A stretch of DNA of 63,378 nt, filler included, from Pelomyxa schiedti (lineage: Eukaryota; Protista; Evosea): the NCBI GenBank assembly GCA_020536535.1. It is 16 parts of 16 records of this genome, joined end to end, with 100 filler letters (N's around TTAATTAATTAA, not from the genome) between each part and the next. Parts side by side here need not be neighbours in the genome. Positions count along the whole stretch, not along the records: positions 6,886 to 8,902 come from JAHLWZ010002174.1; positions 9,003 to 15,202 come from JAHLWZ010001439.1; positions 15,303 to 17,275 come from JAHLWZ010002190.1; positions 17,376 to 24,449 come from JAHLWZ010001377.1; positions 24,550 to 35,662 come from JAHLWZ010000089.1; positions 35,763 to 38,269 come from JAHLWZ010001972.1; positions 38,370 to 40,205 come from JAHLWZ010002246.1; positions 40,306 to 42,806 come from JAHLWZ010001976.1; 8 more parts are not named here. One strand, given 5' to 3'. The notes under the pieces were generated by a model, which was not told the DNA's origin, ran no database searches, and worked only from the letters and a program-made list of their open reading frames with translations. Position numbers and translations under genes: made by a program. Position 1 is the first letter of the stretch. Each line of letters opens with the position of its first letter. This document shows, piece by piece, positions 7,096 through 63,378 of the stretch.

Positions 7096-8464
7096 TCAGA
7101 GGACTGATTCGTGGGCAATTCCAAGAAGCCTCTTAGGGGGGAAGGTTATTGTGAGGACTACGAAGCCAGAGAGAGGCTCCAACACTTGAATGCGGTCACC
7201 AGTCACAATAAACAAGAACCCTGAGCCAGCCATGACCTGTCTGCACTCTGGAACACTCACTGTTTTGAGCGGCCTTGTTGTGTTGTGGCAGTCCCAAAGT
7301 TCACACAGTGAGTTGGGGTAGCCTGGCATGCAGTGAGCACAAAAAACAGACTGGTTCAGCTGTGTCAGATTAGGTGGCACGCCATTCATTATACTGCATG
7401 CCAGATGTGTGATTTGACCTGTTGAGGAATCCACCTGCACGAGGTCGGACAGTGGGAGCGACAAAACAAAGGCACCAGAACCATCTCGCTTCTTCAAAAA
7501 CAGTGGAGGCAAGCATTCTCTCTCTCTGGTGAGTGTGTGGTTGATCTCCTCGTCAGCGATAATGGCTGAGGCGGTAACGCACAGGCTCCCGGTTTGGAAG
7601 GACCTCCGCAAATCTACAACAACGAACGCCAGTCCCAAAAGCTTCTTTCTGCCCTCCGACGCCTGATACCCAATAAGAAGCAACTCGTCTCTGAAACAGC
7701 TTGGAAACACAAGTTCAGAACAGGTGAATAATGCATCCAGAGGCACTCGAACCCTCCTTGATGCATCAGTACCAGCAGCAGAGTCATCATCGCCGCGCAG
7801 CAGCCTCACAATCACCAGGCTTGCTGGCCTTGAATCGAGAGCCACAGCCCAGTCCATCCACTTGCTCACACCCACCCAGAGGAACGGCCCCTCCTCGACA
7901 CCCTGGTCAGCGAACCCAATGAGCCTCTTCCTCCCACTCCCGGGACCCCCAAGCAGCGGCGCGACGCCGTACTTCTTCGTCGCCGAGTCGAGCTCCCACA
8001 CGTGGGCAGTGGTCTGCGCACACAGAGCCGGTCTCCCCCCGGTTGCCGCTGCCGGGCCCAAGACCACGTGGTCGTAGGGCCTCGCGGTCGCCACGACGTG
8101 GCTCTGGCGCCCCCCGCCCGCCGCGCCGACCGGCCCCAGCAGCGTGCGAGAGAGGGAGAACGAGAGCACGGTCGCGGGCCCGGCCGGCGGGGGGGGGGTA
8201 CCTGTGGGTGCTGTGGGCCTCGCTCAGGACGAGGGCGAACGAGGCGGTGTCGAGGAGGAGGGTGTGGAGGAAGGACCGAGTCGGCGAGGCGAAGGGGGAG
8301 CCTGGGAGCCAGAGGGCTCGGGCCGCGCTGGGCGCCCCGCACCGCGGGTGTGACGAGGTGGCCAGCGCCACTAGTTGACTGCGGGCATCGAGGGCTGCTG
8401 CGAATCTCGGATGGGTGGACGCCGATGAGGAGCCCCCACCATCACCCATCAAAGACTGTCCCAT
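7096..8464 (-). pseudogene. HPRCG-family member 1, with a +1 frameshift in a C10 run (pseudogene or sequencing error)
   Basis: MGQSLM...DARSQLVALATSSHPRCGAPSAARAL, then after 8189-8198 the next frame gives VVDLRRSFQTGSL...CELWDCHNTTRPLK...VLEPLSGFVVLTITF. Removing one base joins the frames. Confidence 0.75.
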
Positions 8465-9002
8465 GACTCGCAAACGTGCAAAAAAGAAAAATCGATTCAA
8501 TGAAAAACAACCAAGCCTCATCATACGGTGCTTTTCTCTCCTTGATCTCGTGTGCGATCCACGATTCACTTGCACCTCGCGTTCAGCATCCACACACCAC
8601 CTGTGCGTTTCTGTCCTTTCACTTTCCAGATCCATTTCAAACGAAATGATGCACCTCGTGAGGTGGCCCCTGTGACGCAAATTGTTAGCCAGCCAACGAC
8701 GCAGGAAGTGAGGCCGGGAGCGAGGCGGCCACGTATGGAACTGCGCGGCGACTAAGTAGAGACCGAGCGAGGTTGGAAGGAAGATGTCGTTGAGCCGGTG
8801 ACAGGGGATGCAACGCGGTGACACATCGGAAGCGATAATGAATTAGAAACGTCGGTGAGTCGAAAACATCGGGAGTCCTCAGCCACTGACTCCACATTTT
8901 ACNNNNNNNNNNNNNNNNNNNNNNNNNNNNNNNNNNNNNNNNNNNNTTAATTAATTAANNNNNNNNNNNNNNNNNNNNNNNNNNNNNNNNNNNNNNNNNN
9001 NN

Positions 9003-9701
9003 TTGCAATTGCATCCGTTCCTGCTCCTGAGCCTGCTGTGATGATGATGGCACCACGAGACTCTGGACACGCAGCAGCCCTCTCGACTCGTCAATTCCAC
9101 ACCACCACCTCCCGTTGATGCTGCAGGTCCAGCCCGGCTCGTACTCCAGCCTCAGCACATCCACACCGCCCACTTCACTCCCCTGCGAGTTGTTCCTGGT
9201 GTCCCTCAGCCACAACTCGCTGGCGCCGGGCACCCCTCGCACGTGGGCCACGTGGCGGTAGGCGTCGGCCCACCAGCAGGCGCCGGGCCGGTCCACCTCC
9301 ACGCTGCCGACTACTCCGCGGGGGGTGACGCTGAGGAGCAGCGCGGACACGCCGGCGCGGTGCACCACGCTGCGGCACTGGCGGGTGCCGCTGGCGCCGA
9401 CGGGGATCACGAAGCGGCGCTCGGTGGCGGCCACGCAGAGGTCCCACAGGATGCGGAGAAGGGAGGGCGTGAGGACACGCGAGGGGGGGCTGCGGGCGCC
9501 GCACCGCGGGTGCGTCGACGTGGCCAGGGCGAGGAACTGGTCGCAGGCACGCAGGGTGACTGTGACGACTGGCAGTAGTGGCGGCCCACCCCCGTTTTCG
9601 GTGGGATTCCTGCCCGTCGAGTTGCCTGTTGGTTCTTCGCGATACCTGCCCGTCGAGTTGCCCGTTGGTTCTTCGCGGTACCTGCCCTTCGAGTTGCCCA
9701 T
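9003..9701 (-). CDS. HPRCG-family member 2 (3' truncated at contig edge)
   Basis: MGNSKG...LRACDQFLALATSTHPRCGARSPPSRVLTPSLLRILWDLC; nearly identical to member 3 in parts. Confidence 0.85.
9609..9701 (-). repeat. 36-bp tandem repeat, about 2.6 units, encoding (M/T)GNS(K/T)GRYREEP
   Basis: Units start at 9609, 9645 and 9681 on the + strand. Confidence 0.9.
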
Positions 9702-10023
9702 TTTATTTGTTTCTGCCAGATGGATGAGAAAACACGGATTAATGATTTTTAGGGTAAGTCTAATCAGTGGCACCCAACACTCCAATCACACCGCCCAACA
9801 CCACAATCACTGCTATTATTCCTGCTCTCATTCTCTCCTGTGTTTGTTGTTACCTTTGTGCTTTTTTCTTGGTTTTGTTGTGATAACGGCGTTTAGACAG
9901 CTGGTTGAGCTTGTTGCTGTGCAAAAGGAATTGTTGGCAGCGGGATTCACGAAATTGAATGAAGAGTCCCCTTGGACACTCACCCCCGGTGGCAGGTTTA
10001 AAAGTACTTTTTCCTTATTTGAC

Positions 10024-11331
10024 TTAATCCACAAAAAAGAAGTGTTGTTGCCTGTACACACCCCAACTGGGAGTGTAACAAAGGGTGAAGACAACAAAAC
10101 CAGAAAGGGCATCAACCACACTCATTTGCTTGTTTTGTCCCTCATCCTCATTGGTGATTTGAACCAGGAAACCACACTCACCAACAACAAACCCTGTTGT
10201 CTGAACTACTCTCATCGGTTTCTCGATGTCATTGCAATCCCACAGCTCATAACGCAACTTCTCGTATGAAACGCAGAAGAGTGAGTCACTCAAACGTGAC
10301 AGTGTGCATCTTTCCAAACACTCCCCACAAATCCCCTTCACTGTTCCACCGGGTCTCATTTCCACAACGAATACATGAGTTGGAGCACTGTTGGCAGGAA
10401 CGTGGTGGGCCCACACTTGGATCACGCAAACCTGGGCGCCGGTCTTTGTGATCAGAATGAATCCCTCAAGAATCCTTCCTGCCGGTAAACTTCTGGTCGC
10501 AGAGCACACCACAGACAGGTTACCACTTGAGAATGTCTGTTGTGCATCCACAACAAGGATCCTCTTTTCATGTTTCCCAACTGCCGCCGAATTTGGCCTC
10601 AACACCACCAACAGTTCATCAGGGTCTGATTTGCCCATGCCCATAAACTCCACACTCTCTGGATCCACTGCAACAGTGACAACAACACTCCGCGACGTGG
10701 GCAGCAATTGCATCCGCTCCTCCTGCTGTGATGATGATGGTGGTGGCACCACGAGACTCTGGACACGCAGCAGCCCGCTTGACTCATTGGTGCCACACCA
10801 CCACCTCCCGTTGATGCGGTAGGTCCAGCCCGGCTCGTACTCCAGCCTCAGCACATCCGCCCCGCCCGCTCCCCTCCCCAGCCTGCTGCTTGTGTCCCTC
10901 AGGACGAACCCGAGCTCGGCGCCGCGCCCCTGCAGGCAGGCGACGTGGCGGTCGGCGTCGGCCCACCCGCTGCCGCTGGGCCGGTCTTCCTCCACGCTGC
11001 CGACTACTCCGCGGGGGGTGACGCTGAGGAGCAGCGGGGACACGCCCGCGCGGTGCAACAGGCTGCGGCACTGGTCGCTGGTGCCCACCGGGATCACGAA
11101 GCGCCTCTCGGTGGCGGCCACGCAGAGGTCCCACAGGACGCGGAGCAGGGAGGGCGTGAGGACACGCGAGGGGGGGCTGCGGGCGCCGCACCGCGGGTGA
11201 GTCGACGTGGCCAGGGCGAGGAACTGGTCGCGGGCACACAAGTTCACTGTGACGACTGGCAATCGTGGTGCCCCGCCCTGGTTTTCGTTGGGAGACCTGC
11301 GCCCTTCGTTCCGAGACACGCCGTTGCCCAT
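10024..11331 (-). CDS. HPRCG-family member 3, intact and intronless
   Basis: MGNGVS...ARDQFLALATSTHPRCGARSPPSRVL...VVDAQQTFSSGNLSVVCS...YELWDCNDIEKPMR...FFFVD*. Confidence 0.9.
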   Translation of the reverse strand: MGNGVSRNEGRRSPNENQGGAPRLPVVTVNLCARDQFLALATSTHPRCGARSPPSRVLTPSLLRVLWDLCVAATERRFVIPVGTSDQCRSLLHRAGVSPLLLSVTPRGVVGSVEEDRPSGSGWADADRHVACLQGRGAELGFVLRDTSSRLGRGAGGADVLRLEYEPGWTYRINGRWWCGTNESSGLLRVQSLVVPPPSSSQQEERMQLLPTSRSVVVTVAVDPESVEFMGMGKSDPDELLVVLRPNSAAVGKHEKRILVVDAQQTFSSGNLSVVCSATRSLPAGRILEGFILITKTGAQVCVIQVWAHHVPANSAPTHVFVVEMRPGGTVKGICGECLERCTLSRLSDSLFCVSYEKLRYELWDCNDIEKPMRVVQTTGFVVGECGFLVQITNEDEGQNKQMSVVDALSGFVVFTLCYTPSWGVYRQQHFFFVD

Positions 11332-11405
11332 TACTTTCCAATGGAACCAAATTCGGCGAAAAAAATAACCAATCAACCAGGCTTGATTGAACTTGCCGGA
11401 CAGAC

Positions 11406-12741
11406 TTAGTCCACAAAATAGAAGTCATGGTTCATTGGCACCCTCCAGTTGGAGGGGAAACCAAGAGCCAGAACAACAAAGCCAGAACGAGCATCAACCA
11501 AACTCATCTTCTTGTTTGTTCCCTCATCATCATTGGCGATTTGAACCAGGAAGCCACACACCAGCAGTCAAGAGTGTGTCAGCAACAACTCTCATTGGCT
11601 GCTCGGTGTCATTGCAATCCCACAGCTCAGAGCGCAGCCCCTTGTGTGAAATGCAGAACAGTGAGTCACTCAAACGTGACACTTCACAGCAATATCCACC
11701 GTCCATCTGCTTCACTGTTCCACTGGGTCTCATTTCCACAACGAATATCTTATTGGGAGGTGCAGTGGCAGCACCTGGATTCGGCACCCATACCTGGATA
11801 ACACAAACACGCGTTCCAGTTTTTTTGAACAGAAGGAATCCCTCACGAATCTCCCCTGCTGGAAAATTGGATACCAGAGAGCACACCACAGCCAGGTTAC
11901 CACTTGAGAATGTCTGCTGTGCATCCGCAACAAGGAGCGTCTTATCCTGGGTCCCCAATCCTCTCAGAGATGGCCTGATAACCAGCAGGAATTCATCAGG
12001 ATTTGACTTTCCCATGCCCAAGAACTCAGCACTCTCTGGCTTCACTGCTGCAGCGATCATCACACACCAAGGAATTGGCAGACTTCCGTTCTGGTTCTTA
12101 ACCACCGGAACCACGATACTTTGGAGGAACATGCACTCCCTATCCGCACTGAGTCCACACCACCACTTCCTGTTGCAGTAGTAACTCCCTCGGATCCCCC
12201 ACTCCCTTACAAACTCCAGCCTCATCACCACATCAACTCCCAATGTTTCCCTCGTGTTTCCTACTCTCCCCCCTGGTTCTTTCCCTCCCGAACCAGCTCC
12301 TCCTCCCCCCGTCACCCTCCGCCTCATCAACACACACCCCCCGCCGCCCTCAGGGTTTGGGCCTGCCCAGTGGTCGGCGTCGGGCCGCCGGTGCGGCGGG
12401 ACGAATGGCTCCAGGGTGGCCGAGACCCCGCGGGGGGTGACGCTGAGGAGCAGCGGGGACACTCCCGCGCGGTGCACGAGCTGCTGGTGGCTGGTGTTCC
12501 TGGTGGTGCCCACGGGGATCACGAAGCGGCGCTCGGTGGCGGCCACGCAGAGGTCCCACAGGAGGCGGAGCAGAGGGGGCGTGAGGGCGCGGGCGGGGCT
12601 GCGGGTGCCGCACCGCGGGTGGGCGGACGTGGCCAGCGCTAGGAATTGGTCGCGAGCGCGCAGAGTCACTGTGACGACTGGCAGTGGCTCCTCCACCTCC
12701 TCGCAGTGTCTGTGGTGACACCTGTCTGTTGAATTGCCCAT
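11406..12741 (-). pseudogene. HPRCG-family member 4, 2-nt (GT) loss near the 3' end
   Basis: Frame breaks at about 11555-11561. The shifted frame gives GFLVQIANDDEGTNKKMSLVDARSGF...HDFYFVD*, matching members 3 and 5. Confidence 0.8.
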
Positions 12742-12829
12742 CGTTTAAAAAGAACTGTTTAAGTTACATACCACGTATTTAGATCGTAAAAAGCAAACAA
12801 CAAAGTGTTCTCAGAACCTGGCGTGTTCG

Positions 12830-14176
12830 TCAATCAACAAAATAGAAGTCATGGTGCATCTGCAGCTTCCAGTTGGGAGTGAAATCAAGAGTCAGAACAA
12901 CGAAACCAGAAAGAGCATCAACCAAACTCATCTTCTTGTTTCGTCCCTCGTCTGTGATTCGAACGAGGAAACCACGCACACCAGCAGCAAATAGTGTGTC
13001 CTGCACAACTCTTATTGGCTTGCCTGTGTCGTTGCAATCCCACAGTTCATAACACTGGGTCTTCTGGTATGAAAGGCAGAAGATGGAGTCACTCACACGT
13101 GACAGTCCACAGCCACCTTTCAGTTGCATCACTGTTCCACTGTATTTCATTTCCACAACGAATATTTGAGTTGGTGGCCCACTTGGATTGGGTACCAATA
13201 CCTGGAGAACACAAACCAGCACACCAGTTCTTTTAATCAGAATGAATCCCTCACGAACCCTTCCTGCCGGGAAAGTCCTGGCCACAGAGCAAACCACAGA
13301 CAGGTTACCACTTGAGAATGTCTGTTGCGCATCCACCAGAAGGATCCTCTTTTCGTGTGCCCCAGCTTCCGCCAAATTGGGCCGCAACACCACCAACAGT
13401 TCATTTGGGTTTGACTTTCCCATGCCCAAGAAGTCCACACTCTCTGGATTCACAGCTACTGCAAATATAACACTCTTGGGCTCTGCTAGTATTGACGGTT
13501 GTTGTTGCGGCTGCTGGTGGTCCTTAACTTTTGGCGCGACGAGGCTCTGAAGGCACATCCAATTCCTGCTCAAGTTTAGTCCACACCACCATTTTTTATT
13601 GCAGTAGTAACTCCCATCATGATCCCACGTGGGGCCCTTGACATACTCCAGCCGCAGAACATCGACGCCAACGCCACGAGAGTGTCCAGGACCAAACACG
13701 TACTTATGGTCTATTCCTGTTACTGCGTCCCCCTTGGGATCTCCTCGTCCATCATCTTCTTCTGCACTCCTGTCTTTGAGCACAAACCCATAACCGCCAT
13801 CTGGCAGGAAGGTCTGAACGGAAACGTGGTGGTCCGCGTCTACCCACCAGTTGGGCGGCGGGGCGTGCGTCTCCAAGTTGGCCACGACGCCGCGGGGACT
13901 GACGCTGAGCAGCAACGGCGACACACCCACGTAGTACATTAGATTCTGGTTGAGGTCCCCCGTTACCACTGGAATTACGAAGCGCCTCTCGATCGAGCAG
14001 AGATCCCACACGAGGGCTAGGAGAGGCGGAGTGAGGACCCGCGGGGGGCTGCGGGCGCCGCATCGCGGTTGAGTCGACGTAGCGAGGGCTAGGCATTGGT
14101 CGCGAGCACGCAGGGCCACAGTTACCACCGGCAGTGGATCCTGGCTCCGCGATTGGGCCGTTAGGTGGTTGCCCAT
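12830..14176 (-). CDS. HPRCG-family member 5, intact and intronless
   Basis: MGNHLT...ARDQCLALATSTQPRCGARSPPRVLTPPLLALVWDLC...YELWDCNDTGKPIR...FYFVD*. Confidence 0.9.
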   Translation of the reverse strand: MGNHLTAQSRSQDPLPVVTVALRARDQCLALATSTQPRCGARSPPRVLTPPLLALVWDLCSIERRFVIPVVTGDLNQNLMYYVGVSPLLLSVSPRGVVANLETHAPPPNWWVDADHHVSVQTFLPDGGYGFVLKDRSAEEDDGRGDPKGDAVTGIDHKYVFGPGHSRGVGVDVLRLEYVKGPTWDHDGSYYCNKKWWCGLNLSRNWMCLQSLVAPKVKDHQQPQQQPSILAEPKSVIFAVAVNPESVDFLGMGKSNPNELLVVLRPNLAEAGAHEKRILLVDAQQTFSSGNLSVVCSVARTFPAGRVREGFILIKRTGVLVCVLQVLVPNPSGPPTQIFVVEMKYSGTVMQLKGGCGLSRVSDSIFCLSYQKTQCYELWDCNDTGKPIRVVQDTLFAAGVRGFLVRITDEGRNKKMSLVDALSGFVVLTLDFTPNWKLQMHHDFYFVD

Positions 14177-14439
14177 TGTTTTTGCATCAAAATTAGTTAT
14201 TCGCTGAAGATGATGAAGGGTGCGTGCACCCAGAAACTCTTCTTAATACAGAAGCAGAAATTGTTTGTAGCTCCAACATGCTTTCCTCTGGAGTAAGAAG
14301 GATAGGATTCCTCCTTGATTTCCGTTTTTGGAAAGACAGCGTCACTTTTCAGTTGCACCAGTGTTGTTAGTCTTCACAAATAAATCTTGACACCCGACGC
14401 GCGACGCGACGCACGCTCTTTGTGTTTTGACACATCGCC

Positions 14440-15185
14440 ATGTCTACGACGACCAGCGAAGACCAGCAACAACACGCTCCCCCTGCCGAAGCGGCGACGA
14501 CTCCCGCAGCCGACGCGACACCTAAAACCGAAACCCCCGACGAGGTGGTGGTAGCACCTGACGCGACCGAGAAACTAACAACACCAACAACAACACCAAC
14601 AACAACGCCAACAACAACGCCAACAACAGCGGCGACTGCGCCCGAAACCCCCGCGACGAAGGCGGATGATGTTGTTGTTGTTGCTGCTGTTGCTGTTGTG
14701 GAGCAGCACAAGAAGGAGGAGGACACAGGGGTGGTGCCTGGGAAGGAGGAGGCGCCCTCGGTGAAGGAGCCATCACCCGCACCTACACCAACAACGCAGA
14801 ATGCGAGCGATAGTGGTGCTGCAAAAACCACAACCGCGACCGCACCTGCAACTGCAACGCCTGCTGCTGCTGCTAATGCTACTGGCGGCGGAGGCAAGAA
14901 AAAGAAGAAGAAGGGTGGTGCTGCTGCTGCGACAGGTGATTCCGCGGCGGCTACTGGTACTACACAGGCACCCCCGGTGAAGGAGGAACCGCAGGCGCCC
15001 GCGGCAAAGGGAGGGAAGGCTGCAAAGGCACAAAAGCAGGAGCAACAGCAGCCGGCCAAGGCAGCAAAGCAGAAGAAGCAGCAGGAGAAACAGGGGAAGA
15101 AGGCCAAGGCAAAGAAGAAGGAGACTCTATCCCTTGCTGAATTCACTAAAGACGTTAAGCCGGTTCTCCCAACTGCTCCAAGGAG
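14440..15185 (+). CDS. eIF4B-like protein, first exon (truncated by contig end)
   Basis: Long T/A/P/K-rich leader, then KKKETLSLAEF...VLPTAPR, matching the eIF4B N-terminal K-rich/SL.(D/E)F and LPTAPR motifs that precede the RRM. GT donor at 15186. Confidence 0.55.
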
Positions 15186-15302
15186 GTAGTTTTTTTTTAA
15201 AGNNNNNNNNNNNNNNNNNNNNNNNNNNNNNNNNNNNNNNNNNNNNTTAATTAATTAANNNNNNNNNNNNNNNNNNNNNNNNNNNNNNNNNNNNNNNNNN
15301 NN

Positions 15303-15504
15303 GCCTGAGCACCCAGTCTTTGGCCCACTTCCTGACGAGGCTCGGCGATTGCACCCATAATTTCAACGACGGGCAGCAGCTTGCGGAGCACCTCGCGACG
15401 CCACAACAACACAGTGCAACCACCTGTGACTGAGCCGACGTCGTCGTAGTCGTCGTCATGCCTTTTTGAATGGCGTCACCGTCCCGCGATCGTGTCTGAC
15501 CCAT
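15303..15504 (-). CDS. Divergent HPRCG-family member 9, 5' fragment
   Basis: MGQTRS...SAQSQVVALCCCGVARCSASCCPSLKLWVQSPSLVRKWAKDWVL; degenerate version of the family motif. Confidence 0.55.
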
Positions 15505-15678: not shown

Positions 15679-17275
15679 ATGGCATCATCAACGAGGCTCA
15701 AGGTGGGAACACGTGAGATGCAGTGGGCGCTCCAACCACGAGTGTACTTCCACGAGCAGTTGCGGGCGCTACTGACGTCATCGCACCCGAGGTGCGGACG
15801 ATACAGCCCAGCGAGAGTCCTCCCAGTGTCCCTCATCCGCCAAATGGCCGACATTTGGTCCCCTGGTTCCGTTTTCGTTCGCAGTTGCTCTCCCACGTGG
15901 GCCACGCCGACAGTAGCAGTGATTGTGGGAATGTCAAAGCACACACTGGGAGTGACGACCAGGGATTCCATAATCAAACAAATGGACCTTGGGGACAACG
16001 TTGTGTGGATGACCGACGACGGAAGCCTCTGCCTGCGCCCAGTTCAACGCCCAGTGCCTGCTGCTGTGTGTGACATTGTGAATGGGTGCGAGGTGCCAAT
16101 TCCGGAATCAGGCAATTTATGCACAGCGAAAGGCAGAGGCCAGTGGATAATTGACTCCTTAAGTTCACAGTGGAACATGTGGAGGGTGGTGGTTAGTCCT
16201 CCTCCTGTTGTGCAGTGTGGTGGGAGAACAAGTGATTGTGAGGTGGATTCAAAAAAGGGATTGCTGTGCGTGCTGGGTCCAAGGAAGCTGGCCACCTGCA
16301 AGGAATGTGAGAGTGCCCACCACATGTTTTTCAAGTCCTTTGTGGGTGATGGCAGTTTCTTTTGGGTGTGTTGCTACGCACACCATCACCATTTCATACA
16401 CTTGATTGATTCAGCAAGGGCATGGGAAACTGGTGAGATTGTTCCTGTGGATACTGTGGACATGGTGAAACCTGTGGAATGGGGTGTACTGGGTGTATCT
16501 GTTTACCAGTGCTTCTGGGGATCCAGGAGGGTGTTGGCAAATACTATCTCTTACATGTATGACATGGGAGGAGGAACTCCCAGGGAACTCTGCGCTTCAA
16601 CGTGTCGTCGTGCCGTCACAGATACCCTTTTTATTGCTGAGAGAGAAGTCGGGAGTAATGAGTGCTGCATGTGGGATTTCAGTGGTAATTCCCAGGAGGT
16701 GAAGGTGTTTGGGATCCCATGTGTGTGCAGAGGTCTGACCGCTGCTGGTGATTTCGTTATTGTGGAGGAAAGCTGCTCCAAAGTTCATCTTGTTGATCCT
16801 GCTTCTGGTCTTGCCATTTTGCTATTTTCACGTTGCAATTACTATGATGAATACTTGTGTCATTTGTGGAAGTGTTCATGGGTGAGAGTGTGTTGCAACA
16901 CCAAAGATTGGACACTGTCTGTCGTAGTCGTTGATTTCTGTGAAAAGAACTTTTTTGATCTTCATCCCACCTTCTCTTTCGTTCTTTTTCCTCTGTGGGG
17001 CTTTATTCTCTTCCCACAGAAGCTAACAGAGGGAGTCGTGAGTGGTTATTTGGAGACAACAAAGGTCATTCTGCTGCTCTACCAACTGAGCTACACCTTT
17101 GGGTTTGCCTGTTTTGTTTGGAAACAAACACACACATCGGCAGTCACTACATTTAAAAAAAGAACAACAACTGTGATGGAACCTCCTGCAAGCGGGAACA
17201 CCATGACGAAGTCTTGGCCAAATGGTGTTGAGACCCCTGACTCCAGTTTTGCTGCTTCGAACCCCAGTTCATACA
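15679..17275 (+). CDS. HPRCG-family member 6 (divergent); frame stays open to the contig end
   Basis: FHEQLRALLTSSHPRCGRYSPARVLPVSLIRQMADIW...LIDSARAWETG...CCMWDFSG...HLVDPASGLAIL. Family similarity ends near 16830. Confidence 0.75.
17066..17100 (-). pseudogene. tRNA 5'-half remnant (intact D-arm/A-box, no T-arm)
   Basis: Minus strand GGTGTAGCTCAGTTGGTAGAGCAGCAGA; no GTTCRA loop downstream. Confidence 0.5.
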
Positions 17276-17705: not shown

Positions 17706-18351
17706 TTTGACCCAGATATGCACTTCTGGCGTGATCCTTCAAGAGGTTGCAGATGTCAGTGCTGTTGACTCTTGTTGCCAAATCGAGTGCCGTTTCACCT
17801 TTTCTGGTCTTGCAGTTTGTGTCGATTCCCTTTACTCAGAGCAGAGCCTTCACCCCTTCCTCGTGTCTCCCCTCACAAGCCACGTGCAGCGCCGTGAGGC
17901 CAACGAGCTCCGGGAAACCCGTTGCTTCCCCCGCCAAGTTGACATCCACACGCGGGCACTCAAGCAGCGCCACAACAGCACCCATCCAGCGCCCCACGCA
18001 TGCCCCGACCAGCGGGCACCCCTTGTTCACATCCACGTCGGATCTCGCCACCAGCACCCTCACCAATGCATCGTGGCCGTGCCAAGCCGCGAGGCACAGT
18101 GGCGTCTGACGGCACCTGGCGGTTGTGACGTTCGGGTCGATCCGGGGGTTGCGCGATGCACCTACGCAGAGGAGCTCCCGCAAGAGCGGCTCGTGCCCTA
18201 ACGCGCACGCGTAGTGAAGCATGGTCCAACCATCACCATCGTAGATGGGGGTGTTGATGTCCCACGTGGGCGACGGAAACTCGGGCATGATGCCACGCCC
18301 GCACGCATCGCGCATGGCCTGGTACTGATTCTGAGACGGTGGCCTTGACAT
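17706..18351 (-). pseudogene. Ankyrin-repeat pseudogene, paralogue of 19474-21943
   Basis: WDINTP...TMLHYACALGH...TPLCLAAWHGH...TALHVACEG, in-frame TGA at 17836-17838, then VKGIDTNCKTRKGETALDLA; ends at the palindrome cluster. Confidence 0.85.
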
Positions 18352-18456
18352 GGGTTTGTTGTTTGATCGGACTTCAAGATCTGTAACTGTATCACTGGTT
18401 GTTAGGTGAAGATGATAATCCTCGTCATCCTGCTGAACTAAACAAAAACGAGCAAA

Positions 18457-19330
18457 CTAAATTGAGTGCAATGTGTTGAGAGCATCAGAAGCAGAGAGCC
18501 TGGTGGCACGATCACGTGACATCATCCCAACAAGCACCTGTGCAATGGTGGTGCTCATCTCCGTCGTGGATCTTGCTGTTCCCGTTGTTGTTATGGCTGG
18601 CATTGTGGCTGTGGGTGTGTTTCCATTGTTGATGTTCCAGTTCAGAGGGAGGAGAGGAGGGAGAAACTCAGTGGAGAAGGTGAACATGTCTTGTTTGAAC
18701 TGGCCAATGAACTTGTTGGTGGGTGGCAGCATGGCATCGTAAAAGGTGAGGGCGAGGGAGAATGAGTCACACTTGGCAAACGAGAACACACAGGACGGGC
18801 CATGCATCCTCATGAGGTCCCTGGAGAGTGCACTCACCTCGGGTGGCATTGTCCCTGCGTTTCCCCACACTTGGCTTTCACCCCTCGTCACTGTAACTTG
18901 CAAGTCGTCAGTGGAACACTCCACAGCTTCTCCAAAGTCAATCAATGTGAGAGGGAAGATCCTCAAAAGCAATCCTGACTTGTGATCGCTTGCAGTCGTT
19001 GTTGCTGTTTTCAGAGAATGTTGCACCATGTGCCTTCTCCTTGTTCAACATGTGACATCATGTGATTGTTTGCTTGTTGCCGTTTTTGTGTCAATTCCAT
19101 TGACTTGGAGCAGAACCTTCACGCCTTCCACGAATCCCTCTACACAAGCCACGTGCAGTGCTGTATGATCATGATCCGCCCAACAACCGACTCGTGCCCT
19201 TTCATGCACGGCAAGCGGTAACTATCATTGAGGGTGTTGATGTCCCACGTGGGATGTGGAGGGGGGGAGGGGGTAGTGGGTGATGGTGTGTTGTCTTCCA
19301 GCCTGAAAGTCGTTTTACAGCCAGTAGGCT
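18457..19330 (-). pseudogene. Internally deleted ankyrin-kinase paralogue (ankyrin scraps fused to kinase C-lobe)
   Basis: PTWDINT.., TALHVACVEGFVEGVKVLLQVNGIDT in shifting frames, then LTLIDFGEAVEC...WGNAGTMPPE...KCDSFSLALTF...MMSRDRATRLSASDAL*. N-lobe and HRD absent. Confidence 0.8.
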
Positions 19331-19473
19331 TGCTGACAAATTGTGTTGTTACCTCATGGGCAGAAGCGGGTGTGTGTTTCAGTAGAATACGCGAGCACAC
19401 TCACATCATGATGCATCGTTGTCAATTAGGCGAAAAAACCTTGAACCGATAAATCAACCCATTTGAACCCGTG

Positions 19474-21943
19474 ATGACAACAGCACTGTCAGAGGATCAG
19501 CGCGAGGCCATGCGTGAGGCGTGCTGGCGTGGTGTAATGCCCGAGCTGCCGTCATCGCCGACATGGGACATCAACACCCCCATCGGCCGTGATGGCGAGA
19601 CCATGCTCCACCTTGCGTGCCTGAACGGCGACGTTTCACTTGTACAGCAGGTCCTCGGTGCAGTGGGCGCGGCATCGCGCAGCCCCCCGATCGACCCAAA
19701 CACACCCGACGGGCATGGCCTGACGCCACTGTGGTACGCTGCCCGTTGGGGCAAGGAGGCAGTCGTGAGGCTGCTGGTGGCAAGGCCCGACGTGGGCGTG
19801 AACGTGGCGTACCCGCTGCACATCGCATGTTGGGGCCACCGCACCAAGGCGGTGGCGGCGTTGCTCGAGTGCCCGCGCGTGGACGTCAACTTGGTGGCGC
19901 GGACAGGGGCGGACAAGTCTCTTGACGGTCGAACGGCACTGCACGTGGCTTGTGAGGAGGCATCCCTGGAAGGGGTGAAGGCTCTGCTAGAAGTCAATGG
20001 GATCGACACAAACTGCAAAAACAACAAAGGTGAAACACCACTCGATGTGGCAACGAGAAGGCAGTGCCCTGGTATCTGCAACCTCTTGAGGGATCACAAC
20101 GCCAGGCTGCAATCCTCAAAGCCCGCCACCACCATCACCATCAACACACCAGAAAGTAGCAGCACATTTGAAGTTGAGATGAGAGAGAAAGAGAGAGAAA
20201 TTGCAAGAATCACAGTGGAGAACAAGAGGCTTGGAGATGAAATGAACGAGAGGGTGTTGATTCTGGAAGGGAAACTGCAAGAAAAGGAGAAGAGGATCCT
20301 GACACTCGAGGAGGAGAACTCTGTTCTCAAATCATGTTACCAGGTATTGTATTCTCTATTTCATTTGACTTCATCAACTGACTAAAATTTCTTCACTCCA
20401 CCTTGTGAAAATTCAAAAAGGAAACAGAGGCAGCTCTCTGTGAACAACAAACTGATGCAGAAAACCTGAGGAAAGACCTCACAGAAGAAGTGGAAAGATA
20501 CAAGGTTTTCCTTCCTCTCTTTACAACACACACAAGTCACTCAAAAAACCCCTGCCATGAATCAGACAATTGTGAACACAATGACATCACTTATTTCAGC
20601 AACCATTGATGATTTTGGGGTGATGAAACTGCTTGGCACAGGTTCCAATGCTGCTGCGTTCCACGTGCAACACCGATCCACAATGTTCAACAACCACAGC
20701 ACCAACAACCAAATAAGTTCCACTTCAACAACAGCCTCAGCTCAAACAAGAACAACAACAAGAACGAGAACAGACATGGTGATGAAGGTGGTTTTCAACT
20801 GGGAGAACGCACCACGGCAGACACTTGTGAGGCAGAAATACATGGTTGAATGTGTTGCGCTCTCATTGGTTCCAAATCACCCAAACGTGATCCACCCTCT
20901 TGGTGCTTTGGTCATCCCTTGGTAGTTATTTATTTATTTTTCACCACTTCTTCTCTCTCAATCAAGTCAATAAATAACTCACAGAGACTGTTTTAAATAG
21001 CCTTCCAGCAGAATTTGCCGAGAAAATACCAAGTGATAAAAGCTTTTATCGACAGCTGGGAAACAACAAGTCTTTGGCCATTCTCATGCCCCATTGTGGG
21101 ATCACACTGTCATCGTTCCTCTCTTCCCCCAGCAGCAATTGCATGACGACAGTCCAAGTTGCACAGAATCTGTTTGTTCAAGGACTCAAAGCCATCTTCC
21201 ACATTGAGTCTCATTTCGTTGTTCACAGGTTTGTTGGTTTGTTCCCATCCCACCCTTCTCAAAAAATACCCCAACCCGCTTCTTCCCAACCTTTCTTCCA
21301 ACCCCATCACGGCACTCTTGTTTGTAACTGACTGACTTCCAAACACAGGGACATCAAGGGAGACAACATCCTTGTTGAGCCAGAGACTGGCAAACTGACA
21401 CTGATCGACTTTGGTGAGGCACTCCACTGCCCAAACATGGAGATGATGGTGACTGCCACTTCGCAGGCATGGGGCAACACAGGCACAATTCCACCAGAGC
21501 TGAGCACGTTCCTCAAGAGCCTCACAAGGGGAACCAGTGGTGTGTTCTCATTCTCAAAGTGTGACTCTTTTGCTCTCGCTCTCACTTTCTGGAACGCTCT
21601 TCTGCCACCTGACCACAAGTTCATTGGCAACCATGACGTGAGCCGTGACATGAGTTCATTCAACACCCAGTCCCTTCTCAGTGACTTTCCAGTCCCCTTG
21701 TTTTCACCATCACCACCATCAGTATTAACAGCGGGGCAGGTGTCAACAAGGGCAGCAGCAGCATTGCAGCAAGCACAACCAACACCAACAGCAACAAAAA
21801 GGAGGCGCCAGAACAACAGCATCACCAACGAAATCAACGGGCAAACAGGGCTTCTTGAGACTGTGATGATTGAGATGATGAACCCTGACAAATCAGCCAG
21901 GCTGGGTGCTGCTGATGCCATCCACTCACTCACTTCTTGTTAG
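19474..21943 (+). CDS. Ankyrin repeats + coiled coil + Ser/Thr-type protein kinase, five exons
   Basis: About 4 ankyrin repeats; LGTGSNAAAF, VMK, HRDIKGDN (split by an intron), DFG, GTIPPE. Introns 20344-20420, 20505-20565, 20922-21000 and 21229-21348 restore the frame. Confidence 0.9.
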
Positions 21944-23675: not shown

Positions 23676-24146
23676 GATAATGGTGCCTTGCTCCCTTACT
23701 TCTGGTCACCCTAAGCAAAATCAATTCTTGGAGCAACAACAGATCCATCTCGTGATGACGAGAGAACAGTCCCTGAATGTCAAAAGGACAAGCAGGTTGA
23801 TCAAAAGGTGGAGTTTTACTGTAAACTCCAGAGTCATCACGGGGAATTGAGAACTCACCTTGTAACATGCTTTGAGGGAGACAACATACTTGTTTGACCC
23901 AGCCACCAACAAGCTCACGTTGATTGACTTTGGAGAAGCTGTGGAGTGTTCCACAGATGATGACAAGCTGCAAGCCACAGTGACGAGGGCAGACAGGCAG
24001 GTGTGGGGAAACACCGGCACAATGCCACCATCACAACGACAGGGATGAGCACCACCATTGCACAGGTTCTTGTTGGGATGATGTCACGTGATCGTGCCAC
24101 CAGGCTCTCTGCCTCTGATGCTCTCAACACATTGCACTCTCTTTAG
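23656..24146 (+). pseudogene. Kinase pseudogene fragment of the ankyrin-kinase family
   Basis: MALKV..., GDNILV/DPATNKLTLIDFGEAVEC...WGNTGTMPP, deletion, ITTTGMSTTIAQVLVGMMSRDRATRLSASDALNTLHSL*; several frameshifts. Confidence 0.85.
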
Positions 24147-24175
24147 TTAAACCCTTAGGGTGTATTCCCTTTAGG

Positions 24176-44830: not shown

Positions 44831-45182
44831 TTCTGTCCATGGGTGTGAAAGCTTGCAGTTTTGTGACTGTTTTGGTGTTTTGCGACTGTTGTGTGGTTCT
44901 GAGGCATTTCGCAGGACTGAGGGATTGGGTTACGCCAAAGCACAGTGTGGTGTGTTGTGATTGTTAGACAGTGTAGAGTGGTTTGCCCCCAAGACCTGTG
45001 CCACCGGAAACACGACCGTCGAAGCAAGAAAAACTTTTTTCCGTGCTGTCCAACCAACTTCCTTTTCTTGAAAGACAATAAATAAACCCTTTTCTTGAAG
45101 ATAACAAATGGAAGAATCAAAAACACCCTTTTTAATTGGAGTTTCTTCCCTGCAGAAAACAAACACAAAAAAACACAAACAA

Positions 45183-46912: not shown

Positions 46913-46989
<77 letters not shown>
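46913..46989. repeat. Poly(C) tract, about 77 nt
   Basis: Directly visible; may be a sequencing artefact. Confidence 0.8.
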
Positions 46990-51162: not shown

Positions 51163-51192
51163 AATTTTTGTTCGTTTCGTTTTTGGGGCTTT

Positions 51193-53360
51193 TTAGTTGT
51201 TCCAGGGTTCTGACCAAATCGTGGGTGATAGAGTTCTCGTCCAACAGCGTGTGGGAACAGGGAACTCGAAGGAGGTGTGGGCTGAACAGTAAACCAGAAT
51301 ATCCTCTGTTGTTAGCTCTGGGAAGTACCTCATGGTGTACTGAGCAATGGCCGGTGACTGGCATACAAGGCACATGAAGTTCTCTTTGATGAAAGTCGCT
51401 GTGATGTCTGGGAATTTGGCCAGAAGCATTTGCCACAGGAACAGATCAAACCTGAGGATGAATGTCCAGGGAGACAACTTTTCACACATAATAGAGACCT
51501 GAACATTTTGGCTGTTGGTTAATAAAGTTTTTGGGTTTTTGAAAGTCAAACCTCATCCAATGTGATGTTGAACTTACACATTAACCACTCAGCACAGTTC
51601 TCTTGTCCCCACGTGATCAGGTTGAACAAAATCTGGTTCCCATCAAGTGTAATATGTTCACGCTCCAGTTGGAATTGAGTGATTAACCATTTGACAGTTT
51701 TGGTGGACTCTAGACCAACAGTATTTGCAAGGCTCCGTGCGATAGACTCTTTGGAGATAGAGGACATGGAAGTAATCTTCTTGGCTTGCGAAATACTTTC
51801 ACCTTGAACACTTTCTGCCAAGACACCTCCAAGAATTTCGGAGAGCTTCGGTTCTGGGATTGGGAACTTCTCAATGAGGAGCAGGGGCACAGTCGAGATG
51901 TTTTTCTTTTGGACCAGGTTCTCAACGGTTTCCACAGCCAAACTCTCTTCCACCCCTTTCATTTCGGCATGATTGAGAAGCCATTTGACACCCTCCACAT
52001 TGTCTTCATATCCGTTCAGTGCATTGCACACTTCAACAAGTGCCGCACTTCCTGTTATTATTCCATGACTGCCCGATGTAAGGATTTGGAACGTTGCATT
52101 CATCCAAGACGCAATCAATGTGTTGTTGCGGGCAAGTGCACTGGCGAAGGATTTTCGTAGGTCATCGGGTGAGAGGGTCACTTTTGTTGAAAGCCACTGT
52201 GCAAGTTTCACGTTGTCTTCGAGGTTTTGACAGGAAGCAATAAACATTCCTGGATTTGGAGTCACAGATATACGTGACTCCTCCACAAGCCACTTGATCA
52301 AGTCAAACCCCCTCGAATCCATACAAAGATGTTCCAAATCAGTTTGAGTCGGCGAAAATGATGGATATGTTGAGAGTACCCATTTTAGTATCTCGACATT
52401 ATGGATGTACCGGGCTGAGATCACCTCCTCCCTTCGGATGTGCTCGCTAACATACCTGCAAACTTCCACTTGCGCAGGTTTTTTCCCACTCAGACAATTG
52501 ACGAAAATGCCGTGGGAATTATCCTTCTGGAATGGAAACGTTTCGAAGCACCACTTTACGACGTCTATCTTTCCACTCTGGCACGCAGAAGTATGAATCT
52601 TCATCCAGGGAAATTGGTGGAACGGCTTAATCAGATCAAAGGCATCTACGATCCACTGTGCGATTTCCAAAAAGCCTCCGGAAACAGCCCCACAGAATGG
52701 CTCCACAAACTCCCAGGGCTCGGCGAAGTTGAAGGTCTCCACCAGCCACTTGGCCACGTCGCCGTGGCCCTTCTCACACGCTCTCCTCAGAATGTGAGAT
52801 GCCCTCACATGGTCGACAAGTGTCCCACAAAATCCTCCAGAATCCCACGCCAAACCAGGCCACCGTCCATCGACCAACAGCCTGGCCATTCCGAGGTGGC
52901 CCCCAGCACACAACCTGCTCAGCACATGCCAAAATTCCTTGTTCCTTCTCGTTCTCTTGTTCCGCCCGCTCGCCTCCTCGTGGGTCGTCCCACAATTGCC
53001 ACCGCTGCTGCTGCCGCTGCTGTGGGTTTCGTCGCGGTGCTTCAGCATCCAGTCGACGCAACGCCGGCTGCCGGCCTCGGCAGCGAATTTCAGAACGGGG
53101 TCGGTTTTGCGGTAGTGCCTCAGCAGGGACCGGCACACGCGTCCCACAAGTGGGAACATCGCCTCGGCCACGCGGCACATGACCACCGCATATTTCTCCT
53201 GCATCACGTGCGACTTGGGTGCAATAACCTCTTCTTCGTCGGTCCAAAAGGCGGTGCTCAGGGGTGTCTGCGTCCGGTTTTTTTGTGTCTTCAACAGCCA
53301 CGGCAACACGGAGTCCCATACGACACGCGAGATGACAACGGTCCGATTGATCCCCGTCAT
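51193..53360 (-). CDS. Degenerate ankyrin-repeat protein, two exons
   Basis: Repeats AAEAGSRRCVDWM, CAGGHLGMARLL, ACEKGHGDVAKWL, AVSGGFLEIAQWI, ACQSGKIDVVKW; 53-nt intron 51499-51551; stop TAA at 51193. Confidence 0.8.
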
Positions 53361-58814: not shown

Positions 58815-59607
58815 TCACGGTCGCTGTTCATGATCCGCCTTTTCCTTCCCCTTGTCTGCCTTTGCCCTCACTGCACCGAGGGAATCACCACCCTCGTTTT
58901 CTTCCTCCTCCTCCTCGTGCCCCTCGTCGTCCTCATCCTCATCGTCATCGTCATCCTCGTCGTGGTGGTGGCGCTTGCTCCATTGCACCCCCCTGGTGCT
59001 GGACGATGACTTGGCGCCAAAGGGCAGGGGCCTTGTGCAGCACCCCACGTGCACCACCGTGTTGGGGCACTTTGTGCACTTGTAGTAGTGCTCCTCGCCG
59101 CCCTCGATCAGCCCAGAGCACTGGGCGCACCGCTGTTCCTCGTTGTCTGTCCCGTCCTCCTCCTCGTCGTTGTCGTGTTCGTCGTTTTCATCTTCGCCTT
59201 GTGGTTTGGGAGGCGCGGCTTCCTTGAGCTCCAGGGGGTGCTTGTGAGTCCTGACGTTGATCGTCGGCGGGAGCGGGGTCGGCGCGCCCGAGCACCCGAC
59301 GTGGCAGAACGCATGACAGGCACCGCAGAAATAGACTCCGCCTTCTTTGCCCTCACCACCATCGGCACAAGCACAGCACACGCCGCTGAGGTCCTTGGGG
59401 GCCTTGCCGAACTGGAGCGGGTGCTTGTGCTTGCTGTTGAGGATGATCCACCTCTGCGGGTTCTGCGGATTCTCGAGGCACTCGACGTGGAAGAACACGT
59501 TCTCGGTGTGGCACTTGTACGCCCACGCGGGTCCCGGTTTTGGCTTGTTGCAGTGGTGGCACGTGAACTCGCCGCTGCTCAGGACCAGCTGCACTGGGTG
59601 TGTGTCT
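58815..59607 (-). CDS. Protein with three DC1 (divergent C1, Cys/His-rich) domains and acidic tracts, 5' truncated
   Basis: H.H.L...C..C...Y.C..C....HV.C pattern three times. Confidence 0.8.
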
Positions 59608-59707
59608 NNNNNNNNNNNNNNNNNNNNNNNNNNNNNNNNNNNNNNNNNNNNTTAATTAATTAANNNNNNNNNNNNNNNNNNNNNNNNNNNNNNNNNNNNN
59701 NNNNNNN

Positions 59708-62123
59708 AAGCCAGACGGTGAAAAGCACGACGGAGAGTGGAGGGCCGGGGACAGGCACGGCCGAGGGGCCCACTCGTGGTCCTCCGGCAACACCTACGAC
59801 GGCGAGTGGCACAACGGCCACATGGACGGGTGGGGTGTGTCCCACTTCCCCGGCGGGTGGTATGAGGGGCTGATTAGGGGCGACAGGTGGAAGAGGGGGA
59901 CGTGGAATGAAAAGAACGGGGACGTTAGGTCTGGTGAGTGGGCGTGGAGTGCAAAAGAAGACGCGAATGAGATGCAAGGGTGGGGTGTGCAAAGGAGGAC
60001 AAGCACGGGGCCCAGGGCAGTGGTGACAACGGTGTATGAGGGTGAGTGGGACAGGGGCCAGTGGCACGGGAGTGGAACGTGGTGGTCACCTGATGGATCG
60101 GGTGGCATCTACCACGGCACGTTTGACCACGGCAAGAGAACTGGGCAAGGGAGGATGCTGTTTGGTGACAACAGCCAAGGTGGAGGGAGCTACGTTGGGG
60201 AGTGGAATGACGACATGTTCCGCGGGAGGGGTGTGAGGCTGTGGGCAAACGGTGACAGGTACGAGGGCCAGTGGGTGTGTGGAAAGGAGAATGGACAAGG
60301 CACAAAGACGTGGTCCATCGGATGGTCGTCATTCACAGGGTTGTGGGACGTGGGTGTGCCAAAGAAGGGAACGAGGAGGTGGCCGAACGGTGATCAGTTT
60401 GAGGGCACCTTCAAGCCACAAGGGGGGTTGGGTGACGGTTGGGCATGCTGTGGAGAAGGCACTCTGACGCTTGCAGGGGTTGGTAAGTTGAGGGGAACCC
60501 TTAACGGCAACACTTTCAAAACAAGCACCAGCTCAATTGCCCAGCAACATGAAATGGGGTCATCACAGTCTGAGAACCTTCAGCGGATTGAGGTGTGAAC
60601 TTACTTTCTGTCTCTTACTTTTTTCTGTTTCTGATTTCAGAGTTTTTTCAAACTGCCAGGCACTGAAGAAGAATCACATTCAAGAAAAAAATCAGCTGGA
60701 GGCAGCGTGGCAAAGTGAAATGACAAAAATGCAGCAGGAATGGGAGGTATGTTCCCTGTCCATTGGCCATCCTTTAAAACACCTGTTTCAAATAAAAAAA
60801 GAGGAAATACACTGGACAGATCGACCTGCTCGCAGAAATTTTTCGAAAATTGCAGGAAACCATGGAACAACAGCATGACCAGCTCCAGAAACAAGCGGCA
60901 GAGGCTGGGGACCAACTATTTTCTCCAACAAAAAAGGAAACTGCTGTGTGTGCTACACCTGTTGCATACAATGAACTGAATGAAGCATTCAAACTGACAA
61001 CACATCTGCGTCGTCAGTTGAGGCAATCAGCACCAGAGTTTATTATACTAGCCGAGTCAGTTGATAAACTGAATCAGAGCCTTCAGGGATCCACGCAACA
61101 CAACGAGAAACTGACATCACATCTGAGTGACCTTGGCACGTTGAAGGCCACACTTGGGAAGGAACTTCAGGAATTTGATGAGTCCTGCAAGGAACACCTG
61201 GGACAGACACTTACAGTTCAGAACAGTGAGGCAGAAATGCACGAGTGCTCCAGGAAAATCTCAGTGCTGACATCAAAGCTTCTAAGCATCAAGACAGGTG
61301 GGGCTCCAGAATGTACTCTTTCTCAGCCACAAGAAGGTATTGCCATACTCTCTTCAAAAAAATCAGTCTCTAATCTGTCTCAAAGAAACTGGCAACAGTG
61401 AAAGTTTATTGAAGGTTGGAAACGTGTTGCAAGAGCAGACTCTGGATGATGTTGTCTCTACCACGGCAGCAATACTGCAACCATTCTCAACGTTGACCTC
61501 ACTCACAGAGACACTCACACATATTCAAGGGTGCCAGTTCGAAGAGTGCACAAAGCTCGCAGACCAACACATTGCTCTGTCAAAGGAGCTTGCAGAAAAA
61601 GTCACACTCAGCCGCAAACTCCACAAGGCAATCGCGGAAATGCAGGAAGAGTGCTCACAGATGAAGAGGGAACACAAATCCAAGATGATGCTCATCCATG
61701 TGCTGGAGGGTGACGAGCAGTTCATTGGATCGCCAAATGTGTTCTCTCAGCTCTGCAAGTTGCTCCCACAGGCCCAGCAGGCTGTTACTGGTCTTATGGC
61801 ATCCAAGGCCGCTTCCCTTTCTGCCCTTGTGTCCACCCCTTCAAGCACACTTCCGGGGTGCACCTCCTCTGCCACATTGTCTTCAGCAGGTGTGACTGCA
61901 GCACCCACTGCCACCATCGTGAACAAACTGTGCATCGAGTGTGATGAGAGGCAACCAAATGTTCTATTCCAGCCCTGTGGTCACGTTGTCCTGTGCTCTC
62001 AGGCATCTCGACGCTTTCTCTTTCATTGTTCTATTCACAACTAATCACACACAGTGCGCTGCCGTTGGAATGAGGAAGTGCCCTCTCTGCCGCACGCCAA
62101 TTCATCAAAAACACTTTGTCTGA
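59708..62123 (+). CDS. MORN repeats + coiled coil + C-terminal C3HC4 RING (putative E3 ligase), 5' truncated, multi-exon
   Basis: Many (Y/H)(D/E)GEW..G..HG.G repeats; CIEC...VLFQPCGHVVLCSQ, intron, CAAVGMRKCPLCR; stop at 62123. Confidence 0.85.
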
Positions 62124-62239
62124 TTTAAGTAACATTGTNNNNNNNNNNNNNNNNNNNNNNNNNNNNNNNNNNNNNNNNNNNNTTAATTAATTAANNNNNN
62201 NNNNNNNNNNNNNNNNNNNNNNNNNNNNNNNNNNNNNNG

Positions 62240-63378
62240 GACCAGATGATGTCGCTGGCCATGGCATCGCACCCCCGCTGTGGCTCCCGCTCCTCGCTCT
62301 CGTCGATCTTGTTGCTGTTGATGACCACCACATCGATGGCTGGTTGTTGTTGTTGTTGTGACGGCACTCTGGTGCTCAGGCTGTTGTGGAGGTGGTTGAT
62401 GGGAACTGAGAGGTTCTTCTGCGTGTCTTGGAGCTGCACGCAGTACCATGTGATGATCACATTCGGTGTCTCCTCGGTGTTGTTGACCCTCACTCATGAA
62501 GTGAAGTGGTGGGTTTATGATTGGCGCCGGAAACTGTTGGGTGCAAATGACCACCAGTTGGTGGAAGGGCGGAATGTGTACCACTTGAAGGACAGAGTGA
62601 CTGGGCAACTGCTTGAAATTGACAACTATTATGAAGAAGCTTGTACAAATGGGAAGTGGTTTGTGGGCTTTTCCAAGCAGTTACTGTTTGTGATTGAGCT
62701 GCCAAAGAGGGGAGAACAAAGCACAGCAATGCGATCAACAGTGGTTCCAATTTCACCTGTTGGGAGCAAATGGAAGGGATTGACACATTCCTTTTGCAGT
62801 TTCAATGCTGACAACCTGTTGGTTCGCTTATCTGTTTCGTCCAAAAGTGTTTGTGTGCATTTCATTCTGATCGACCTCGCACAAACAAAGTCATCAGGAA
62901 AACTTGTTGCTGCCGCCTCTGCGATTGTTCACATCGAGGACAGTGACGAGAATCCTGATGCCCTGGAGAGGGATGATTTCATGACCAACGAATGTGTTGT
63001 GTGTTCCACAGAGAGTGGTGCCCACTCGTTTGTCACAATGACTGAACATGCCAGGCTCATTTCCATTGACGAGGGAACTGGCAAAGTTCATAAACTTGAT
63101 TCCAAGAGATACAAATTGTTTTCAGGGACACATGTGATTTCACAACTGAGTGTGTCACAGTTCTGTGTTTTCAAATGGGGTTCTGTTTATGATGTGTGGG
63201 ATATCAATGACCCGACCAAACCAGTGAGGGAATGCAAGTTACTGCCTGGGTTCACCACCACTGAGTCTTTTTCTGAAGGTGGATTCATGTTCCAGATGAG
63301 CGAATCACACACTGAAATACACGTGAGCGAAGAGTGCTCTGGTGACCACGTCATCACCTTCAAGTTATTCAGGCCTCT
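62240..63378 (+). CDS. HPRCG-family member 8 (open at both ends; missed by the ORF track)
   Basis: DQMMSLAMASHPRCGSRSSL...LRLLWRWLM...ITFGVSSVLLTLTHEVKWW...LIDLAQTKSSGKL...YDVWDINDPTKPVR...SGDHVITFKLFRP; closest to member 7. Confidence 0.88.

Follow-up and report, generated by a model that had tools for sequence, protein, structure and literature searches.

The genome of the protist Pelomyxa schiedti (NCBI GenBank assembly GCA_020536535.1) harbours a large family of genes in which a constant N-terminal helical module, marked by the motif HPRCG, precedes a domain predicted to fold as a beta-propeller with variable loops on one face. Nine copies lie in the window analysed here, i.e. the whole stretch of 63,378 nucleotides, which consists of small P. 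schiedti scaffolds joined with 100-base spacers. The family is duplicated in tandem, includes broken copies and keeps its module constant while the propeller loops vary. The reading to which the evidence leans, if not strongly, is that these genes form a birth-and-death repertoire of substrate receptors of the Skp1–Cul1–F-box (SCF) type, in which the module would dock Skp1 as a one-helix F-box and the bound targets would be ubiquitinated. Such docking is likely in view of a wider family of HPR[L/C]G modules outside Pelomyxa.

A scan of the window frames with profile A2 recovered all nine copies on five scaffolds, as the first-pass annotation had claimed. Two whole copies (named, like the others, by their first window position: 9003 and 15303) and two separate frames (the N-terminus of 7096 and the tail of 11406) were held out of this profile; they scored E=4.5e-54, 9e-4, 1.8e-11 and 3.4e-11, respectively, against E=1.5 for the top unrelated frame. 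Three copies are intact, complete and single-exon: P0001 (10024..11331, minus strand, 435 aa), which was used for modelling; P0002 (12830..14176, minus strand, 448 aa), with the variant QPRCG; and P0003 (22128..23477, plus strand, 449 aa), with HRRCG. Another three are frameshifted. The copy at 7096..8464 (minus strand) is shifted within a stretch of ten consecutive C (about 8189-8198), so that its first frame encodes the module and its second the propeller; the same frame recurs ungapped in contigs from two DNA runs, possibly the source data of the assembly itself. The reading frame of the copy at 11406..12741 (minus strand) is shifted by 2 bases near 11554, within its last blade. In contigs from one study, run X2 carries the in-frame form, and X1, X3 and an RNA run the shifted one, which suggests that the break is still segregating; all four substitutions tested in this copy alter the amino acid (14 of 111 rows tested). 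In the divergent copy at 15679..16847 (plus strand), 8 bases are duplicated near 16813-16828, which carries the frame past the stop used by its paralogue; it then stays open to the scaffold end (17275). The last three copies are cut by scaffold ends: 9003..9701 (minus strand), which has lost its 3' half; 15303..15504 (minus strand), an N-terminal fragment with a degenerate module (E=7e-6 in a second profile comparison); and 62240..63378 (plus strand), cut at both ends by the scaffold and the window. Four copies form a head-to-tail array on the contig at 9003-15202 (with 9003 as the fourth gene), in which the genes are separated by 74, 88 and 322 bases.

Two claims on these copies hold in narrower form. 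The exact word HPRCG, said to be common to all, is present in six of the nine, the others being the two variants above and the degenerate 15303. Introns, said to be needed in no copy, are indeed unneeded in the three copies that are intact and complete. The main text of the genome paper reports 19,876 predicted proteins and an average of 7.43 introns per gene (PMC8887013). Introns inserted by the public gene models merge or truncate these single-exon genes, both on the contig of the array (9003-15202) and at 7096-8464, where P0023 bridges the frameshift. Thus Pelo_17686, the model of the 10024-11331 gene, is 100% identical over 69% of the length but cut at 333 aa, and Pelo_17687 fuses genes 12830 and 11406 via an intron that their reading frames do not need. 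Weak evidence of transcription comes from RNA contigs (one run, one study), which cover parts of 10024, 11406 and 12830 and none of the 7096 gene body. Three further observations concern the surroundings of the copies. Just upstream of member 9003, positions 9624-9848 show high contig depth and loose ends, suggestive of a dispersed repeat. Over the motif at 8314-8381 the summed contig depth is 255-319, against 16-66 alongside; this is not a copy number, and the rise is as expected if many paralogues share the motif at the DNA level. Member 22128 is flanked by an inverted pair of ankyrin, coiled-coil and divergent-kinase genes (17731-21943 and 23914-24148), with 72% DNA identity over 623 bases.

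The anticipated presence of many more copies was borne out by a profile search. A ten-sequence profile was searched against 1.84 billion representatives, and hits were counted as clusters at 50% identity: 509 clusters were found at E<=1e-3, 359 at <=1e-10 and 145 at <=1e-30. Among the 150 matches listed of the 509, all 36 named clusters belong to P. schiedti; at least one long unit is present in 141 of these matches, two units in 26 and the module in 127. The two-unit proteins are likely annotation fusions, since Pelo_17687 joins two window neighbours. Additional domains seen in long gene models (Sel1, kinase, RhoGEF, E2 and others) were discounted as architecture for the same reason, namely that the annotation demonstrably fuses neighbouring genes. 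None of the 90 full family proteins matched a Pfam family at E<=0.001, and no noteworthy NCBIfam match was obtained. Family-wide myristoylation was considered and rejected: six of the eight window copies with a visible start begin with MG[NQ], yet MG opens only 13 of 157 stored proteins. Annotated starts are unreliable, and the MG start is at most a subfamily trait. P0162 and P0163 represent a far more divergent branch, in which VVPRCG or IVGRCG, a form close to the viral VPRLG, replaces SHPRCG; with this branch, the family probably reaches beyond the 509 clusters.

The C-terminal region had been proposed to be a propeller-like receptor, and structure prediction agrees. AlphaFold2 was run on P0001 with a 90-row alignment and returned a mean predicted local distance difference test score (pLDDT) of 87 and a predicted template modelling score of 0.86. 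The model has 28 strands between residues 76 and 434 (10027..11106, minus strand), read as seven blades closed by the C-terminal strand, each blade having four strands as in WD40 repeat proteins; the blade count follows the order of strands assigned by DSSP without coordinates. A VIA fold search listed 50 matches (Z 14.2-16.5, root mean square deviation (rmsd) 3.7-7.2), all of them propeller proteins as far as their titles tell, the best with Z 16.5 and rmsd 4.3 over 290 residues. Fold searches return many kinds of propeller with no standout, which points to a distorted propeller of its own family. At the sequence level, PF00400 (WD40) matched none of the 90 members and the GH-WD repeat signature is lacking; a single WD (98% W, 93% D) lies at the end of strand C in one blade only, a position that supports the strand labels. 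The best PDB sequence match of the family is Caf1/p55 (E=0.019).

The BC and DA loops are the usual ligand face of propellers. In this family they are the least conserved, with means of 0.64 and 0.68 bits against 2.03 for the AB and 1.88 for the CD loops (14 vs 13 loops, p=2e-5). The mean for the module is 2.45 bits, and members share a median identity of 42% over it, compared with 22% over the propeller. Such a pattern fits a constant plug joined to a variable binding face, as had been suggested. In the four tandem copies, the ratio of nonsynonymous (dN) to synonymous (dS) substitution rates is 0.14-0.33 for the module in all six pairs, and the module is under purifying selection; outside it, dN/dS is 0.54-1.2 in the top loops and 0.25-0.84 in the rest. 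Positive selection on the top loops is not established by these values.

The module of P0001 (residues 33-72; 11116..11235, minus strand) consists of a helix, the HPRCG turn, a short helix and a last helix. It is not a canonical F-box, and the part of the earlier proposal that saw SCF-like F-box adaptors here fails to that extent: the F-box models PF00646 and PF12937 matched none of 90 full Pelomyxa proteins and none of 44 modules, and F-box helices 2 and 3 are absent in the P0001 model, where residue 76, after the last helix (60-72), already belongs to the first propeller strand. Profile alignments to F-boxes end at F-box position 21-22. What stands of the proposal is a connection, by indirect evidence, with F-box helix 1 and Skp1. 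Modelled alone, the module reaches pLDDT 80 and yields generic helical matches with VIA (best Z 5.5, rmsd 2.1 over 45 residues), and Foldseek returned no match for it. Against PDB sequences, the Pelomyxa module profile gave no match and the HPRLG profile one chance match. Co-folding of the P0001 module (24-76) with an amoeba-virus Skp1 core, run without alignments or controls, scored 0.02 against a mark of 0.34 and gives no evidence either way.

The link to the F-box runs through relatives outside Pelomyxa. A scan for HPRLG gave two real cases among 18 in genome contigs and 104 loci in metagenomes. From these, alignment A5 was built of 35 distinct metagenomic copies, chosen by eye after duplicates and off-frame chance matches were dropped, plus one bacterial copy. 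The scan pattern fixes the core of A5; it leaves free the stretch that follows, L-x-x-L-(D/P)-x-(E/D)-L-L-x-x-I, which nevertheless recurs. Partner domains, unrelated to one another, were assigned in 14 of the 36 frames (three ankyrin, two RCC1, one WD40, two FHA, one Arf, three fibrillarin-like, one helicase C and one weak DUF), and no family in the other 22; these partners suggest that the metagenomic hosts are microbial eukaryotes. The module lies within 60 residues of the stop in 21 of the 36 frames. A5 aligns with the Pelomyxa module at a probability of 96% (E=1e-9), and its last helix (the last 21 columns only) aligns with helix 1 of 19 real F-boxes at E=5e-5, a score reached in none of 40 column shuffles. 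Among bacteria, the module is present in two of 64 genomes of one order, that of genome G001. Searches of viral contigs with four motif patterns gave no real module, and tblastn against plasmids gave chance matches only. Two bacterial records merit separate mention. Frames of more than 2,000 aa in a bacterial bin (G002; L012 and L139-L145) carry two modules each and ubiquitin-like tails, and are likely eukaryotic contamination or a mobile element. A bacterial protein at L170:1000-2292 (minus strand; G012) has the module between apparent ankyrin repeats and ends in a clear stretch resembling F-box helix 1.

The A5 profile did find modules in a virus. A viral record of 189 kb (G003) has eight matches, all of them in seven tandem genes that combine an ankyrin match with a module at the C-terminus; the last gene of the row ends 31 bases before a gene identified as Skp1 by Pfam. 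This adjacency comes from a single record and was found after the fact. The viral module aligns with F-box helix 1 at E=4e-4 and with the Pelomyxa module at E=1e-3, with none of 40 shuffles as good in either case. A shortened Skp1 (Pfam positions 2-37 of 48) was considered for this record and rejected: the gene has a 55-base, spliceosomal-type intron (L154:9803-9857; GTAAGT donor, ACTAAC branch point, CAG acceptor, in phase), and its second exon encodes a normal last helix, the Skp1 being of full length. Unspliced, this viral Skp1 looks truncated in one frame, and claims of shortened Skp1 from unspliced DNA need an intron check.

In the proposed mechanism, the last helix of the module would replace F-box helix 1 on Skp1; helices 2 and 3 may have their substitute in the module's first helix and R-[CL]-G turn. 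The top face of the propeller would then hold a target near the Cul1-Rbx1 ligase for ubiquitin tagging, each paralogue acting as an exchangeable receptor that picks a different protein. Tandem duplication and changes in the loops would create new specificities, and frameshifts would remove them. The cowpox protein CP77 is reported to bind Skp1 with its first F-box helix alone (PMC4353913), which is a precedent for docking by one helix.

Several observations weigh against this mechanism. The likeness to F-box helix 1, claimed for the Pelomyxa family itself, is seen in the HPRLG and viral profiles and not in the Pelomyxa-only profile, which fails to align with the F-box profile (score 8, with 7 of 40 shuffles as high) and depends on its relatives for the link. 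The Leu-Pro-x-Glu start of helix 1 is eroded in the Pelomyxa module, and many members have long insertions directly before the last helix. The E=1e-9 between A5 and the Pelomyxa module overstates their likeness, as the pattern used to select the HPRLG set spans the same core. Of the 14 viral Skp1 loci, the remaining 13 lack a module gene in the flanks fetched (up to 10 kb). As for the receptor face, outer-face propeller loops tend to vary in any family, and the top-loop dN/dS near 1, which comes with raised dS, is no better explained by positive selection than by misalignment or relaxed constraint.

Among the alternatives, the one that survives best, although rather unlikely, is that the partner on which the module docks, as a portable tag, is not Skp1 but, e.g., Elongin C, another cullin adaptor or a scaffold unrelated to ubiquitin, the propellers still being diversified receptors. 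Ankyrin, WD40 and small GTPase partners, with the module often near the frame end, are reminiscent of the architectures of SOCS-box proteins, and the best conserved part, i.e. the first helix and R-[CL]-G, is without counterpart in F-boxes. The BC-box consensus, however, has Leu and Cys where the first helix of Pelomyxa has Ala and Phe/Leu, and no BC-box was recognised: SOCS and VHL models matched none of the 44 Pelomyxa modules and none of the 36 relatives. The sole matches of cullin type are one F-box-like (1/36, E=0.019) and one PRANC (PF09372; 1/36, E=0.15), both among the relatives (PRANC matched none of the 44 Pelomyxa modules), and the viral neighbour gene is Skp1.

Somewhat less probable is that the module has lost adaptor binding in Pelomyxa and now serves as a structural cap or oligomerisation element, the proteins being free receptors or lectin-like binders. 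Its pLDDT in the model of the full protein is 85-95, one propeller face has conserved loops, the F-box-like signal is gone from the Pelomyxa profile, and Gln36 and Trp67 are conserved in Pelomyxa, unlike in the wider family. Nevertheless, the best-kept residues (A-L, HPR-G and SP-R-L) are those common to the wider family, and the bottom face would be just as conserved if it were packed against a linker to the ligase. That the family is mostly neutral clutter from duplication or retroposition, with few functional members, is improbable: three of the nine window copies are frameshifted (one in some runs only) and the genes are intronless within an intron-rich genome, but the module is under purifying selection, core positions are retained at ~22% identity across hundreds of clusters, and transposase and reverse transcriptase families were not found among the 44 longer gene models scanned.

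If Skp1 docking holds, an entire class of SCF receptors, in protists as well as in their bacteria and viruses, escapes counts based on Pfam. The 509 clusters correspond to about 2.6% of the 19,876 predicted proteins, if all are from P. schiedti, and nearly all named ones are labelled hypothetical. In Dictyostelium, 18 Skp1 interactors with receptor-like domains and no recognised F-box were reportedly left unexplained (PMC9485057); these can be checked directly for the HPR[L/C]G module. A bolder proposal, offered as speculation and doubtful as a whole, is that HPR[L/C]G is an undescribed kind of Skp1-docking box, widespread among microbial eukaryotes and copied in turn by their intracellular bacteria and viruses, which Pelomyxa would use as an innate-immunity-like repertoire, with more than 500 intracellular receptors that flag proteins of foreign or symbiont origin for destruction. 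The earlier suggestion of a role in recognising engulfed or endosymbiotic microbes is likewise speculative. Curing Pelomyxa of its symbiotic bacteria is reported to be feasible (PMC10579272), and a link to symbiont control is therefore testable. An uncatalogued module, its spread and a family this large among hypothetical proteins appear to be new: no published description of the HPR[L/C]G module or of the Pelomyxa family was found in the literature searched, supplements and subscription journals lying outside the search. The strings HPRLG and HPRCG gave unrelated papers only (for HPRCG, among the matches listed), Pelomyxa with F-box or Skp1 gave no match among those listed, and the main text of the genome paper (PMC8887013; supplements outside the search) mentions neither F-box, ubiquitin nor gene families.

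The remainder of the window carries other genes and features. Exact 121-base duplications flank three 100-N gaps (652-772 = 873-993; 30823-30943 = 31044-31164; 33858-33978 = 34079-34199) and are an assembly artefact. A 548 aa open frame (45105-46754, plus strand) has a septin/AIG1-like GTPase domain (E=6e-6) and a cysteine-rich stretch, and resembles immunity-associated GTPases. Degenerate ankyrin repeats without the HPRCG module are found in a 604 aa open frame (51546-53360, minus strand), which may belong to another expanded family. The gene at 748-3177 (minus strand) is taken to be elongation factor 2-like, and further frames encode a C1 domain (58815-59606, minus strand), MORN repeats (59708-60598, plus strand) and a RING finger (61286-62044, plus strand).

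In comparison with known systems, the closest in design are the F-box/WD40 receptors of SCF ligases, such as Cdc4 (1nex) and Fbw7 (2ovr), which likewise have an N-terminal helical module followed by a propeller with a variable top face. The Pelomyxa family, on the other hand, lacks F-box helices 2 and 3, has an extra helix and the HPRCG turn before the helix-1-like part, shows no WD40 Pfam match and a WD in one blade only, and numbers hundreds of copies; both structures rank among many propellers in the Foldseek list, a match of fold only. Since the F-box and WD40 sequence comparisons failed, the family is not classed with them despite a similar proposed working. SOCS-box and VHL-box receptors (ASB, WSB, RAB40) carry a short helical box common to ankyrin, WD40 and GTPase proteins, whereas the HPR[L/C]G module has neither the BC-box consensus nor a Pfam match. 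In poxviral ankyrin-PRANC proteins, e.g. cowpox CP77, an F-box truncated down to helix 1 binds Skp1 (PMC4353913). The viral and metagenomic relatives resemble them in combining ankyrin repeats with a C-terminal box; the Pelomyxa module, in contrast, has no PRANC match, is N-terminal and sits on a propeller. Large expansions of F-box and BTB proteins are known in amoeba-associated Chlamydiae (PMC4209131). Those arrays encode bacterial effectors with recognisable Pfam boxes and leucine-rich or tetratricopeptide repeats, whereas the Pelomyxa family is unmatched by Pfam and belongs to the host; common to both would be birth-and-death evolution and the pairing of a constant box for ligase docking, putative in Pelomyxa, with a variable binding domain.

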